From assembly GCA_037141195.1 (NCBI GenBank), contig JBAXCZ010000001.1, forward strand, positions 36,683-100,682: a stretch of DNA of 64,000 bases, in the 5' to 3' direction. Position 1 is the stretch's first letter. Each line of letters starts with the position of its first letter. Source of the DNA: Clostridia bacterium (lineage in GTDB: Bacteria; Bacillota; TC1; JBAXCZ01). This document shows positions 36,001 to 45,000 of the stretch, piece by piece. Position numbers: made by a program.

Positions 36001-39000
36001 TGGTTCTGATGGACCACGGTTATGGTGGTGACGCAACATTTAACGAAGCAATTTCTTTTATGATCCAGTGCGATGATCAAAATGAGATTGATTATTATTG
36101 GGATAAGCTCTCTTTTGTGCCGGAAGCTGAAGCCTGTGGTTGGGTAAAAGATCAGTTTGGTCTGTCTTGGCAAATTATACCAAGTTCTATGGGGGAGTTG
36201 TTGTCAGAGGGAACTGAAGCGGAAATTGGTAGAGTGACGAAGGCATTTCTCAAAATGAAAAAATTTGATATTATTGCTCTAAAGAGAGCGAGAAAGGAAG
36301 ATATATGATTGATTTCACACTTTCAGTTTTACCCTTTATACTTGTTTTTGTAGCAAACTTTTTCCTGAGTTGGATTTACTATTCACCTATAGTTCCTTGG
36401 TTTAAAGCCTGGCAAATAGGTGTAGGCGCTGATATCAATAAAACTGAAATGTCGGAAGAAGATAAGAAAAACATGCCAAGACTCATGGGTGGCGCAGTCA
36501 TTGCATCGCTGTTGTTTTCTTATGGGCTCCAAATCATAGTGCATAGTGTTAATGCTACCGATTTTATATCTGGAGCTTTAGTTGGATTTGTATTATGGAT
36601 GGGGTTTGTCATAACACATAGCCTTAACACACAATTTGAAGGCAGAAAACCGATTGTTTTAGTCATTAATAATGTTTTATATTTGGCGACTTATACGATC
36701 TTTGGAGGCATAGTTGCAGTATTTGGTTAATTTAATTCTCAATCGAATTAAATGCCTTTAAGGAAATTGTCTGGACAACTCTTTGGGACTATCTAACATT
36801 CCGTGACTGGGCAAATAAATTTAAAGGAGGAACAATATGAACACAAAAATATTTTTGAATTTACCAGTAAAATCATTAGAAATAACAACTAAATTCTATA
36901 CAAAATTGGGTTTTGAATTCAATCCAGAGTATACGAACGAGAAAGCTACCTGTATGGTTATTAATGATATGATTTATATTATGTTTTTAACGGAACAGTT
37001 CTTTACTTCGTTTACAAAAAAAGATATTCCAGATACAAAGAATATGGCACAATGTATCGTGGCATTGTCGGTAGACTCGAGACTCGAGGTTGACAGACTT
37101 GTTGATCTAGCGTTCGAAGCAGGTGCAGGTGTGTATAATGAAACACAGGATCTCGGATTCATGTATTCAAGGAGTTTTAGCGATCCTGATGGACATATGG
37201 TAGAAATATTCGTGATGGAAGATTAGCAATTTGGGAGGGAAATAGATAATATTGCTGGAATTAAAATCGACCATTCTTTTTTAAATTATAAAAAGGAATT
37301 AATTCGATATGGTTATCAGGTAGGAAAGATTTCTTTAAGAGAACAAACAGTAAATTTTAAAAAGATTGGTTAAGATTAAAGTCGTTCTATAATGGTAAAT
37401 AAGAATGCAAATTGCAATTTTGATTAGAAATTAAACTTAAATAGAACAACATTTTAAGCCACTGGGTGTATATGATATAAGATACTTAGTGGTTTTTTTA
37501 TGTGGAAAAATATCAACTAGTTCCAACCATTTTAGAAAAATATAGCAGTTCGTATAAATAACTTGAGAAAGGCTATTTTTGTGATATCATTGCCATATAT
37601 CCACGTTTAATTTTGTTTTTTGGAACAAAAAAACTAGAGATATAGCTAGTTTGCTAACATCTATACATAATCATATTAAGGGGTGATAATTATGGCAATC
37701 GAACAGGCAGCTTACAAGGTATTAATCAAAGAAGGTGACTTTGAAATTCGCGAGTATGAACCAATGATTGTAGCAGTGAGCAATGAAGCTGATTTAAGGG
37801 GTGGCGGTGGCTTTGATACATTGTTTAGTTACATCAGCGGAAACAATCAGGAGAAAAAGAAGATTGAAATGACCACACCCGTTTTAAATGATCTTGGTCA
37901 GGAGCAAGAGACCATCGCTTTTGTAATGCCTAAAGAGTATAGCATGGACAGTATTCCAAAACCACTTAATTCAGAGGTGCAGTTGCAAGAACTAGCTGGA
38001 CGTAAAGTAGCTGTAATTATCTTCTCAGGCAATATTAACCCAGTCAAAATTGATGAAAAGAAGTATGAACTATTAGCTTGGTTAAAAGAAAAAGAGATCA
38101 GCGTGAAAGGTTTAGTGGAGTTAGCCCGATATAATCCGCCTTTTATTCCAGGGTTCATCAAGCATAATGAATTGCTGATGGAAGTAAATTAAACAGAAAA
38201 GGGTGCGAAAAAGCTTGGATAATACGATAATGACTATTGATTTAGGGTTTGTAAAAGCATTTTTAATCAAAGGGGAGAAATATATCCTTATAGATATGGG
38301 AGTCCCTAAGTCATTTGAGAAAATAAAGCGTTATATAACGGACAATGGAATAAATGCCAAGGATATTTCTTTGGTTATAATTACACATAATCACTTGGAC
38401 CATACAGGCTCGATAAGCAAAGTAAAGGAGTTGACTGGTGCACCTGTGTTGATACACAAAGCAGAAGATATGTATCTTTCAAAAGGGGAAACTACGCCTG
38501 TTGAAAGCAGAAGTCTATTTGCAAAATTATTGATGAAAATCATGAAAGAACCTGAAATTGAACCGTTTTACGCTGATATCATTGTTAAAGATAATGACAT
38601 CTTTGACCTGGAGCCTTATGGGGCTCAAGGCAAAATAATTCACACACCTGGTCATACAGATGGATCAATTTCAGTGTTACTGGATAGCGGCAATGCCGTT
38701 GTGGGGGACTTATTCAGTGCCAAGAAAACAAAACAGGGTACAAAGGCGAACTATCCGTTTATTTACAGAGACATTAATGTTGTTAAAGTCAGTATATGGA
38801 AATTGATAAATCAGGGGGGCAAACATTTTTATAACGCACATGGTGTAGTATGTGATGAAAATGCACTACAGAGATTATTGGAGAAGGAAGATAATAAATG
38901 AGCAATGGATCAATATACAATATTTTAGTGGGAAATAGTTTTCTGCCAAGTAACCAGTAGGTCTTCACGACATCATTTTTGTCTACCCAAGGCACGTGGA

Positions 39001-42000: not shown

Positions 42001-45000
42001 CCGAGGTTGAATGAGCAGGTTAGATGAAATTGATTGAATTTGAAGGAGAGGATATGTATGAAAACTCTGAATGAGCTTATAAGCGATTACACTTACCATT
42101 TGCAGCATGGAGAAATGCAGCTGGCATATAAGGGAGTACTTGATTTCATCGGTAAATTGAGAGCTAATTTCATTAAAAAATATCCGCATTACGACATAAG
42201 TAGTATATACCAAGGCTATATGGATATGTCATATTTTTCATTAACGACAAAGCTCTTAAAGGAAAAGGGGCTTAAGATAGCCATAGTCTACATGCACGAA
42301 AAAGGACACTTTAAGGTATGGCTTTCTGCCCGAAACAGAGAAATATCCAAACTATACGCGTCTGTATTTTTGGGCAAAAATTTTGATAAGATTACAGTAT
42401 TTCATGATGATGATAATCAAGATGCCATTATAGAATGTACATTAACATCTTCACCAAATTTTGAGGAGCAGGTATTGTTAACAGATACTATTGAACAGGG
42501 TGTCGAACAGTTTATAACAGCTGTAAGTAATCTTCTTATAAACTAAATTTCAATTTAGTAGGGAAATCTACATAACTTCTTTCAAAAAAAAGATTTATGG
42601 AGTATAAGATAATATTAAATTATATACAACTTTTTATTATAAGGAGGAAAATATGAAAGAAATTCAATTTTCAATCCAAATAAATGCCTCTAAAGAAAGA
42701 GTCTGGGCAACTCTTTGGGATGATATAACATTCCGTGACTGGGCAAATATTATTGATGAAGGCACATATATGAAGGGAGTAATGAAAGAAGGAAGTGAAA
42801 TCCAGTTTATATCATCTGTAAATGGTTACGGTGTGACCAGTCTAATTGAGAAACTTAACCAGAATGATTTTTTATTACTTAGGCACAATGCAGACACAAA
42901 AGAAAGTGGACAGCAGGAACGCGAAAAAGAGTGGACCGGTGGGACAGAGAGTTATTCGCTTACCGAAAAAAATGGAGTTACCACATTAATTGTTAAAATG
43001 GATGTTCCACAAGAACAAGAAGAAACGTTTAATACTAGGTTTCCCAGAGCTTTAGAGCGTATAAAAACTCTAGCTGAGTAAGAACGAAAAATAATTTTTG
43101 AACTCACACCGCAAGGTTTCGTGCTACTCTTCGCTCCGCAATTTCTCAAAAGACGACTTTTTCTTAATAATCTGCGAAAAGCCGATTGATATATTTTCAA
43201 GAACGCAAGGTTAAAATATCACATTAAGACATCAATTCTAATAACTAGAGCCAAGTTTAGTGTATGGTATTAATGTCAAGAATACAAAGCTAAGTATATA
43301 AAAAAGCTTATAAATAGTGGGTTTTTGAGATTTGTAGGCCACAAGCTGAAACTCAGAAATTCCTTTTTCGCTCTAGGGGAATATTTTAAAGGCGGAGAAT
43401 TTACTAGTTAGGTGGTTAGATTGGATGGTATAGCTTAGTGACAGAGTAGGTTATACATCAGACTCTTGCAACAGAACTGATTGGCTGATATATTTAACAA
43501 GTAGTCGAATTGGATTTTGACATGAAATAAGCTGGTTTTATAGGGATAATATAGAAATTTATCAGGAAGAAATAAAATGAATAATTTATAAAGCGTATAC
43601 GAGGAGGATTATGATGAAAGTATTTTTAGTAAATGGAAGTCCACATGAAAAGGGCTGCACTTATACCGCATTACAAGAGGTAGCTAAGACCTTAGAAGAG
43701 GAAGGCATTGACACAGAAATATTTTGGATTGGTATTAAACCGCTTGCTGGTTGTATAGCTTGTAGATCCTGCCAAACAGCAGGGAGATGCGTCTTTAATG
43801 ATAGCGTAAATGATTTTATGAAAATAGCTAAGGAAGCCGATGGATTCATTTTTGGAACTCCTGTGCACTATGCGGCAGCTGGTGGAGCAATCACTTCATT
43901 TATGGATCGTTTATTTTATTCTGATGCTCTAGGAAATGGTGGTCAGACATTTCGCCTGAAGCCAGCAGCTGCAGTCATCTCCGCAAGAAGAGCTGGAACA
44001 ACAGCTGCTTTCGATCAAATCAACAAGTATTTTACTATTCAGGAAATGCCTATTATTTCTTCCCGCTATTGGAATATGGTGCATGGTGCAAAGCCTGAAG
44101 ATGTTCGTAAGGATGAAGAAGGACTTTATACAATGCGTGTACTCGCAAGGAATATGGCTTTTTTCTTAAGATGTCAAAAGGCTGGTATCGCTGCAGGCAT
44201 AACATTGCCAATTAGAGAGACACCTGTGTTTACAAATTTTATTCGCGATTACTAAGGTATATAGAATTCTTGAGAAATTACAAAGTTTACAAAACTTTAG
44301 GAACTGATACTGTGATTTTTTAGTAAAGGAGCCACGACAAGTGAAAATAGTGAAGCTGAAAATAAAACTAAGTTTTGTATTTTGTTTTCTACTGACAATT
44401 ATGATAGTAATGATAGTGTCGGGTTGCAAGTCCAAGACCTCGCAGATTAGTTATGAAGAGGCTTACAATATTGGTCTGCAAGCATATACCTACGGATTGC
44501 CTTTACTGGAGACCAACAAGACCTTTCTTAGCATGACAGATGCAAGTAGTGGCCTGGTTAATCAGTTCAACCATGTGCGCTCATTTAACGATTCTAACAG
44601 CAAAGTTGTTGTAGCCCCTGGGGCCAGCGGGCTATCTTCTATCGCCTGGTTAGATCTCACGAATGAGGCACAGGTGCTACATATACCTAAAGTAACAGCT
44701 CGATATTTTGTACTGGCACTCCTTGATCCGTATACTGAGGATATCTGTAATCTTGGAAGCGCTCATAACACTCCAGAAGGAGACTATGTAATATGTGGAC
44801 CAAGTCAGCATGAAATAATCGTGCCACAAGGTACAAGCCAAATCAAAGTGGATTACAACCGCATCTGGATTATCGGGTCCACACAAGTAAAAGACGTCAA
44901 AGACATCCCTAACGTTAACAAAATCCAAGACGGATTCACCATCACGCCATTTGGCAAATATGGAATGGAGCACCAACTCCCGACCATAGAACAGGCAAAT

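Follow-up and report, generated by a model that had tools for sequence, protein, structure and literature searches.

A 64,000-nt stretch of a Clostridia bacterium genome (GenBank assembly GCA_037141195.1, contig JBAXCZ010000001.1, positions 36,683 to 100,682; hereafter the window) carries three copies, a, b, and c, of a composite repeat, R2, downstream of rlmD, the gene for the 23S rRNA U1939 methyltransferase. The R2 repeat family is a real feature, and it is mostly explained by rumA/rlmD-specific serine-recombinase elements and their tandem accretion. In our reading, to which we give a probability of about 0.8, small integrative blocks have stacked up in tandem in the 3' end of rlmD through a large-serine-recombinase system, and the R2 units are the junctions inside that stack. 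The original prediction, made from the sequence alone, saw in each unit one end, the left, of a related small element, bearing repeats that bind proteins. That view is largely right in substance; the type of recombinase that its wording implies is wrong, and it is overstated for copy c and for the covariation of the hairpins.

The existence of the three copies is confirmed by the window repeat search and by gapped blastn. In gapped blastn, R2a and R2b align over 199 bp with 83% identity (E 5e-53), R2b and R2c over 99 bp with 72% identity (E 1e-9), and R2a and R2c over 99 bp with 69% identity (E 3e-5); the repeat search matches copies a and b over 153 nt at 79% and over a further 68 nt at 78%. 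The RlmD-like relic described earlier is present as well, reading HVEAVILMSRVNK and a stop codon in R2a and YVEAVVLTSRVNK and a stop codon in R2b, and decayed in R2c. Homology had also been proposed to continue for about 100 bp to the right of a hairpin in all copies. This holds for a and b (82-bp alignment; Smith–Waterman score 83 against a shuffle maximum of 35, 0/1000), whereas the similarity between a and c is not significant (122/1000 shuffles reach the score) and that between b and c is marginal (19/1000) and confined to the first 20 nt, TTxTCGCTCTxxGGGAATAT. Therefore, the claim is limited to a and b; R2c has lost most of its right arm.

The hairpins of R2a (−20.1 kcal/mol, z −3.4, none of 200 shuffles equally stable) and R2b (−23.6 kcal/mol, z −4.2) are stable, contain GC pairs, and are directly followed by a T-run, and are thus predicted intrinsic terminators. 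In contrast, the hairpin of R2c (−12.9 kcal/mol, z −0.9) is matched by its shuffles. The stems were thought to be maintained by compensatory changes, but of the 19 pairs, one is truly compensatory (C-G to U-A) and six have changed on one side and still pair; this covariation among the three copies is not significant (144/500 shuffles reach it). The short motif reported from the right arms, GATTTAGATGT, occurs five times in the window with at most one mismatch, compared with 1.85 expected, and four of 100 shuffles reach five. Taken alone, this enrichment within the window is weak; in comparative data, however, GATTTAGATGT is the outer part of the R2-family version, (GAGT)GGTCGATTTAGATGT, of a conserved phased repeat.

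The target gene, rlmD (32659–33978, plus strand), is identified by the Pfam domains TRAM and tRNA_U5-meth_tr and by an identical protein named RlmD. The live rlmD junction (33910–33978, plus strand) has a left half (GATATGTTTCC..., the DMFP codons), a putative central CA at 33931–33932, and a right half (half-site matrix score 5.5 at 33933; register from sequence), and its current tail is AVTLLTRSNATR followed by a stop codon. From the 3' end of rlmD to the end of the window (64000) there are ~30 kb of accessory genes, nearly all on the plus strand; the cargo genes all have the orientation of rlmD. According to Pfam, they include DUF1801, SRPBCC/AHSA1, PhnB-like, glyoxalase, SOUL (twice), metallo-beta-lactamase, DUF1214/DUF1254, DUF7000, FMN reductase, GGDEF, Fic, AbiE, PadR, and other genes. 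A tRNA scan of the window returns zero tRNA genes, and an Rfam search at E ≤ 1 over 30–64 kb returns nothing at the R2 units, which argues against both a tRNA-type island and a known RNA.

Comparison of close RlmD relatives locates the point of insertion. A scan of the genome collection with RlmD yields relatives at ~30% identity only; the close ones came from protein clusters and fall into just two clusters at 90% identity. Proteins of the sister-species cluster are identical or near-identical up to ...VDMFPNTGHVE and then continue in at least four unrelated tails (CVILMQRSGVKGEK, TCVLLSHKKSQASSPSL, SIILMTRSGSGDKK, and CVVLMSRVEK; the window protein has AVTLLTRSNATR). The DNA after the GHVE point differs contig by contig, and contigs tend to end there. 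Together with the displaced tails of R2a and R2b, this divergence is what insertion into the 3' end of rlmD with replacement of the last ~11 codons leaves behind.

The enzymes appear at related public loci. In L025, GHVE is followed at once by sequence antisense to the C-terminus of a large serine recombinase, whose homologues contain a recombinase zinc-ribbon domain or are named site-specific recombinase; L032, from another genome, has the same convergent overlap of a recombinase with an rlmD-family gene. Public contigs with the R2-type tail pattern TTGAYGTCAAGRGTNNANAARTAA (...LMSRVxK and a stop codon) include 26 viral ones and at least 120 from metagenomes. At some of these tail sites an intact rlmD ends; the open reading frames (ORFs) there are 400 aa or longer, with GATATGTTYCC (DMFP codons) in front. 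Other sites are internal junctions, and their ORFs are short. In L036, L066, L166, L177, and L064, the recombinase ORF itself ends in ...SWDNE(S/T)TVETVVLMSRV(E/D/N)K and a stop codon, which is the tail of RlmD, and the three recombinases submitted to Pfam (L036, L066, and L166) match Resolvase, Recombinase, and Zn_ribbon_recom. An R2 copy adjoining a recombinase gene, which the original prediction suggested looking for, does not occur in this window; a recombinase gene overlapping the att site is found in L025, L032, L036, L066, L166, and L177. The last ~11 codons of rlmD, from GHVE on, are a hot spot for large serine recombinases, and each inserting element brings its own replacement RlmD tail, followed by a terminator, a GGGAACATATC-type box, and two to four phased direct repeats.

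Some related loci show very small elements. In L169, a minimal 1.7-kb element between two tails (sites 2374 and 4108) consists of a left-end module and a serine recombinase gene, possibly frameshifted, and has a different class of right end (AAATAGCCTAA...TCA). In L166 and L147, too, recombinase-only units stand in tandem. In addition, many contigs with distant rlmD homologues end ~0–1.7 kb after the gene (L005, L006, L014, L018, L019, and L020; Lachnospiraceae metagenome-assembled genome, MAG), and the close relatives L024 and L027 also end soon after rlmD, suggesting that assemblies commonly break at this hot spot.

The R2 units have the layout of a recombination junction. The left flanks of internal junctions are recurrent. 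One class of them, the class A junctions, which include R2a, R2b, and R2c, share the consensus GACATCAAT.....C...TCG.GC-CA-CGTTGAGACGGTAGTATTGATGTC, a 24+2+24-bp imperfect dyad with the outer motif ATTGATGTC on both arms and CA in the center. The first 24 nt of an R2 unit (GACATYA...) are inverted relative to the tail and make up the right-end half-site of the upstream block. In view of the dyad and the inverted left half-sites, we read the unit as a junction between blocks: as judged from its sequence, it consists of the right-end half-site of the upstream block, CA, a displaced RlmD tail, and the DNA that formerly lay 3' of that tail. The idea of a left end is thus sound from the relic rightwards, but not for the first 24 nt, which belong upstream.

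R2a starts at 38969. Its left half-site (GACATCATTTTTGTCTACCCAAGG; 38969–38992, minus strand, matrix score 10.7) is the right end of the upstream SOUL and metallo-beta-lactamase block and fits the class A consensus GACATCAAT...TCG.GC CA. The central CA (38993–38994) and the displaced tail HVEAVILMSRVNK with its stop codon occupy 38993–39034 on the plus strand and form the right half-site, ending TTGATGTC. This tail region is homologous to the tails of intact rlmD genes in L148 and L157. With the left flank included, region 38942–39034 is 83% identical to the viral contig L050, and the left flank is also homologous to the right end of an element in L074. The terminator hairpin and T-run, supported by folding against shuffles, lie at 39057–39110 on the plus strand, followed on the same strand by the right arm (39118–39204), which aligns with L074 and L042 and contains the box TTTGGGATATATCCAACA, the stretch CTGATTTTAAACATGACAGAG, and two repeats (TATAGATGT at 39162–39170 and GATTTGGATGT at 39190–39200).

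R2b spans 40844–41173. Its left half-site (GACATTATATTAATTGTCTCAGAC; 40844–40867, minus strand, register from sequence) is followed by TA, not CA, at 40868–40869, and then, on the plus strand, by the right half-site with the displaced tail (Y)VEAVVLTSRVNK and its stop codon (40870–40909; matrix score 3.8 at 40870), the terminator hairpin and T-run (40932–40988, again supported by folding against shuffles), and the right arm (40997–41173). The arm has the box TGGGAATATATCCAAC (40997–41012) and four repeats, at 41038–41048, 41056–41079 (degenerate), 41098–41108, and 41150–41173 (GGTTGAGTTGATAAAATAGCTGTG, matrix score 26.7 bits). The left flank, from 40734, is homologous to L118. R2c spans 43228–43429. 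Its site (43228–43293, plus strand) has the left half at 43228–43251, CA at 43252–43253, and the right half at 43254–43277, with matrix scores of 9.2 (minus) and 9.1 (plus), and its decayed tail runs to a TAA at 43291–43293; the rest of the copy (43316–43429, plus strand) holds a decayed hairpin (43316–43364), the start of a box (CGCTCTAGGGGAATAT), and one repeat-like site (43406–43429, matrix score 10.2). The unit boundaries first proposed are thereby adjusted; they ended R2b before its strong repeat at 41150–41173 and started R2c at 43255, without the left half-site.

The outer GACAT.A of the left half is invariant in all three copies. The half-site matrix was trained solely on the repeats downstream and not on core sites; with it, the inverted left halves of R2a (10.7) and R2c (9.2) are found exactly 2 nt from the right half, giving a 50-bp dyad. 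A scan for full dyads with this matrix is insensitive and is used for geometry only: it finds R2c, with a 2-nt spacer, as the sole full site in the window and 11 further sites in public loci, all with a central CA. R2a and R2c, with CA, therefore have the form of serine-recombinase att sites, a ~50-bp dyad with a central dinucleotide. At least R2b, with its central TA, and R2c, with its decayed tail, are probably inactive.

The attP sites of serine integrases have 25-bp half-sites (PMC3783163), and the R2 dyad matches them in size and in the position of the outer motif (16–24). In the chromosomal rlmD half, the related motif AACATATC sits 3–4 bp nearer the center; the published shift of the motif in attB is 5 bp (PMC3783163). 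This geometric comparison of the R2 and rlmD half-sites with attP and attB is our own inference. Dyad symmetry and the point at which strains diverge suggest that the crossover takes place at CA.

Copies of rlmD sequence also lie to the left of the junctions. In class A right ends, the rlmD left-half motif (GGATATGTTCCCAAGAAC...) is present once or twice, in direct orientation, 10–115 nt left of the half-site; these copies mirror the inverted box of the left-end module. Such copies are seen in L102, L042, L128, and L179 and, in the window, at ~43178–43200 and at 40728–40772 (plus strand), where the relics (GGATATGTTCCCAAGAAC...GAAATGTTCC) lie inside the right end of the R2a–R2b block.

To the right of the tail, left ends belong to at least eight sequence families but share one architecture: tail, hairpin with T-run, box, and two to four direct repeats. 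In many unrelated metagenome contigs, this module sits after intact rlmD and after the right ends of other elements, and the cargo directly 3' of it is unrelated. R2b, arm included, aligns at 66–74% identity over 200–333 bp with eight loci, among them L148, L102, L074, L118, L157, L042, and L115. A hairpin and T-run lie ~74 nt after the stop codon in 75 of 103 distinct left ends (median z −2.7). The box, G[GA]AA.A[TA].TC, is present in 43 of the 103 modules, with 41 of its 44 occurrences at +80 to +120 and none on the reverse strand (shuffle mean, 3). This GGGAACATATC-type box, GGGAAyATATC in R2, is the reverse complement of the DMFP codons of rlmD. The 24-nt repeat matrix (consensus GGTTGAGTTGACAGGATTGATGTC) detects 197 sites in 89 of the 103 arms, compared with one on the reverse strand and 1.3 in shuffles. 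Each module has two to four repeats, mostly two or three, on a single strand, the first ~135 nt after the stop codon and the spacings peaking at 28–31 and 39–41 nt; the direct repeats of R2 end in TAGATGT.

This phased arrangement strengthens the earlier proposal that the short motifs are candidate protein-binding sites; as a prediction from sequence, we consider it very probable. In 56% of modules, the repeat matrix also picks out the core right half-site, in exact register and with ≥8 bits, and no other position between −50 and +100 scores, which argues that the repeats are extra copies of the recombinase half-site layout, GTTGAG-N11-GATGT. Most likely, they would bind the DNA-binding domains of the recombinase, as accessory sites or as operators. 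Replication iterons or an oriT were considered unlikely identities for the repeats, because minimal elements hold only the module and a recombinase gene (L169). A limited literature search found no description of the box and repeats of the left-end module. R2b has no match in the annotated phage collection and a sole match, one Enterococcus plasmid, in the annotated plasmid collection. That Enterococcus faecalis plasmid (LR962847.1, 85–89 kb; L179) has an erm(B)-ant(6)-Ia-spw resistance cluster, and directly downstream of its spw gene comes a class A junction, GACATCAATGCCATCAACTCGAGT-CA-CGTTGAGACGGTAGTATTGATGTC, whose left-end module is truncated; the junction carries no annotation.

Two other readings of the module are unlikely, to a similar degree. 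The modules could mainly serve as regulatory heads of accessory operons, each combining a terminator with an operator or promoter region, and a transcription factor unrelated to recombination would bind the repeats; such a role need not exclude junctions of a stack. It would suit the position of the repeats directly upstream of the recombinase gene in minimal elements (L169 and L136), the TTGACA or TTGATA in many repeats, which resembles a −35 hexamer, and the co-orientation of all cargo with rlmD. However, promoter-like matches in the region are at chance level (75, with 74 expected), so we make no promoter claim, no candidate regulator is conserved beside the modules, and the repeats match the core half-site in exact register. 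Alternatively, the repeats could be scars rather than functional sites, namely earlier RlmD tails that piled up and decayed as insertions and deletions followed one another. Accretion is known from this region, and each repeat does resemble a tail half-site (GTTGAG-N11-GATGT, 18/24 consensus identity), yet the number, position, and spacing of the repeats are conserved across families that are otherwise diverged in sequence, and no left half-sites or terminators lie between them.

The DNA between the junctions is cargo. The blocks of the window are 1.8–7.7 kb long and contain no recombinase, conjugation, or mobilization genes. By Pfam, the R2a–R2b block (39298–40544, plus strand) encodes a DUF1214 protein and a DUF1254 protein and no mobility gene, and the R2b–R2c block (41304–43081, plus strand) a 236-aa protein of an unknown family, a DUF7000 protein, and an SRPBCC/AHSA1-like protein. 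Each of the two has a left-end module and a right-end half-site with only cargo in between, in the manner of cis-mobilizable elements (CIMEs). At public internal junctions, a serine recombinase gene is found within 3 kb to the left in 12/39 and within 3 kb to the right in 9/51, indicating that recombinase-free ends are common. The same module and cargo (113-aa and 318-aa ORFs) are located after intact rlmD in L157 and after the right end of another element in L175; this occurrence at different stack positions directly supports accretion. For excision or integration as such, it is indirect evidence, as is the variation of RlmD tails between strains.

The stack would grow as follows. A new element would enter at the live rlmD end and push the old tail, the terminator, and the left end of the resident element downstream, where the displaced left end would be joined to the 24-nt right-end half-site of the newcomer. 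The resulting composite of half-site, CA, old tail, terminator, box, and repeats would be an R2 unit, and repeated rounds would produce the order rlmD-[block]-R2-[block]-R2-[block]-R2. The terminator is predicted to stop rlmD transcription and, in the free circle, also the recombinase transcript that reads into the site. The blocks of the window are non-autonomous: a recombinase encoded somewhere else may be able to move them in trans, or they are fossils.

Several observations weigh against a stack of this origin. No serine recombinase gene or remnant is detected in the 64-kb window by Pfam or by tblastn with five diverse queries, nor is a serine recombinase in the next 10 kb beyond it (locus L028). 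The assemblies of this species that were compared (a 224-kb MAG contig, an 86-kb contig, and a 3-kb fragment) show no gain or loss of a block and have the same order as far as they extend. Between module families, the outer motif of the repeats varies while the core is constant, unlike what is expected if the same protein binds the same site, and protein binding to the repeats is itself a prediction. The placement of the crossover at CA is indirect, whereas the streptococcal crossover is reported as GA (PMC4120198); GA was considered here and set aside, as CA, two codons upstream, appears to fit dyad symmetry and strain divergence better. Finally, R2a and R2b are nearer to each other (83%) than to any external module, and local duplication or gene conversion could have contributed to their likeness.

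A tentative extension of the stack reading, possible but doubtful, is a cassette system in which short, recombinase-free cargo blocks, all with an entire left-end module and a right-end half-site, are captured and released in trans by a large serine recombinase, with the repeats and the inverted rlmD-like box as accessory sites. Capture at the live rlmD site would then be last-in-first-out, because each insertion recreates a usable target. Such a system would imply a higher-order complex or an autoregulatory operator in an enzyme class thought to need no auxiliary DNA; large serine recombinases have been described in these terms (PMC3783163).

Local duplication as the full explanation, in which R2 arose by segmental duplication in place or unequal crossing-over of the rlmD-distal region with no site-specific insertion, is improbable. 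R2a and R2b are mutual best matches (83%), and the window contains other local duplications, such as 37611–37910 and 48846–49145 at 98%. Against this, the DNA between the units is unrelated cargo, the homology begins exactly at the conserved half-site and ends at the end of the module, and the left flanks match right ends of elements elsewhere (R2a, L050 and L074; R2b, L118). Most improbable of all is the lambda-type arrangement that the wording of the original prediction implies, with R2 as the attL of a tyrosine integrase at the rlmD 3' end and the GATTTAGATGT copies as arm-type sites: tyrosine integrases commonly restore the 3' end of the target gene, and the motifs, like P' arm sites, are set 130–250 nt off the core on one side, but Pfam finds no tyrosine recombinase among the ORFs of the window or of loci L001, L002, L025–L028, and L032 (for the pattern-matched loci, ORFs were listed for nine only and screened for serine recombinases only), this very tail is where the serine recombinase genes end, the site has the form of a 24+2+24 dyad, and the repeats look like the core half-site and not like an arm-type motif of their own.

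Other features of the window surround the R2 units. A second junction family, R1, occurs at 33990–34144 and 51042–51194, with a partial copy at 37432–37520. R1 has a longer and more diverged RlmD-like relic (...FDWSQTTSECVVKLEKR and a stop codon) and a different terminator (AAGCCACTGAGTG...CATTCAGTGGCTT), and it shares the box (GGAACATATC at 34150 and GAAAAATATC at 37505). R1a follows the live crossover by only ~115 nt, so the newest 'insertion' is almost empty; R1b also has a decayed ...VNK tail. R1 and R2 together make at least seven junctions in 17 kb. The 300-nt duplication at 37611–37910 and 48846–49145 (98%) covers the upstream region and the start of two genes for SOUL haem-binding proteins (37683–38192 and 48918–49445) and is much younger than the R1 and R2 repeats. 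A 106-nt segment between the DUF1761 and glyoxalase genes (36729–36834) is 82% identical to 42661–42766; it matches the first 106 nt of the SRPBCC gene at 42653–43081 and is probably a 5' gene fragment left by rearrangement.

Further down, a perfect palindrome with a 20-bp stem (51236–51286; ATATACCGCTATCGGAATAA...TTATTCCGATAGCGGTATAT) lies just upstream of the Fic gene (51296–52225), where it overlaps a promoter that matches the sigma-70 consensus at 12/12 positions; the palindrome looks like an operator, as predicted from its sequence. An AbiEii toxin gene (54492–55367; Pfam) comes after and overlaps an ORF of 216 aa (53858–54508) that has no Pfam match and occupies the position expected of the AbiEi antitoxin, and an Imm5-like immunity gene (55442–55969) comes after the AbiEii gene. 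The same co-oriented array thus has defense and immunity cargo further down.

With these assignments, the repeat family becomes a readable insertion history at the 3' end of rlmD (rumA), a known hot spot that in streptococci and enterococci also collects elements carrying resistance to vancomycin, macrolides, and aminoglycosides. Metagenome assemblies often break here, and the sequence landmarks by which such elements can be delimited in them are the 50-bp dyad, tail, box, and phased repeats. Should the repeats bind the recombinase, they would add a layer of accessory sites to large serine recombinases, which are widely used genome-engineering tools. If the recombinase-free blocks move in trans, anaerobic Firmicutes would accumulate accessory genes in an integron-like way.

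Both serine-recombinase insertion into rumA/rlmD and tandem insertion there are already published. One target of serine integrases is rumA (= rlmD), and the 3' parts of rumA and int are exchanged reciprocally (PMC4701971); vanG elements and ICE-r, an integrative and conjugative element (ICE), insert in tandem in rumA, whose last 11 codons are fused to the recombinase gene (PMC4120198); and IMEs (integrative and mobilizable elements) and prophages use the same gene (PMC5357655, PMC12785378). Within the limits of our literature search, the conserved module of terminator, box, and phased half-site repeats and the rows of recombinase-free cargo blocks may be new.

The closest known systems are the rumA/rlmD elements of Firmicutes, comprising streptococcal ICEs and IMEs, vanG elements, ICE-r, CTn5, and the Erysipelothrix prophage phiEr670 (PMC4701971, PMC4120198, PMC5357655, PMC12785378). 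They have in common with the present loci the gene, the position in its last ~11 codons, the reciprocal exchange of tails, a recombinase gene running into att, and tandem insertion; unlike them, the blocks of the window are cargo only, with no genes for recombinase, conjugation, or mobilization. Left ends here carry a tail of 11–13 codons, a terminator, a box, and phased repeats, whereas left ends of the vanG type have 101–115 codons (PMC4120198). CIMEs, as outlined for ICESt1 and ICESt3 in the part of PMC5357655 that cites Pavlovic 2004 and Bellanger 2011, are likewise non-autonomous, att-flanked islands stacked in tandem at one target, potentially mobilizable in cis or in trans. The CIMEs outlined there depend on tyrosine integrases at the 3' end of fda or of a tRNA gene, whereas the sites here are of the serine type and several small blocks stand in a row.

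In staphylococci, staphylococcal cassette chromosome (SCC) elements such as SCCmec and pseudo-SCC insert at the 3' end of rlmH (orfX) through the large serine recombinases CcrAB or CcrC, and SCC arrays contain elements, some without ccr, separated by direct repeats of the gene end. The target at the 3' end of an rRNA methyltransferase gene, the large serine recombinase, and the arrays partly without a recombinase are alike; the gene is rlmH rather than rlmD, the recombinase family is another one, and the repeats of ~15–30 bp lack a module of terminator, box, and repeats. Integron arrays resemble the stack in having co-oriented, promoter-poor accessory blocks between structured recombination sites and cargo such as glyoxalase, SRPBCC, and DUF1801. 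Unlike integrons, the window has no IntI, attI, or attC (no tyrosine recombinase in Pfam and a blank Rfam result), its sites are double-stranded dyads of the serine type, and its blocks often contain several genes. Lastly, the res sites II and III of small serine resolvases (Tn3/gamma-delta) are inverted accessory sites that bind dimers within ~100 bp. Like the modules, they place extra copies of the recombinase motif beside the crossover site, whereas the repeats here are direct, resemble half-sites, and lie 130–250 nt away.

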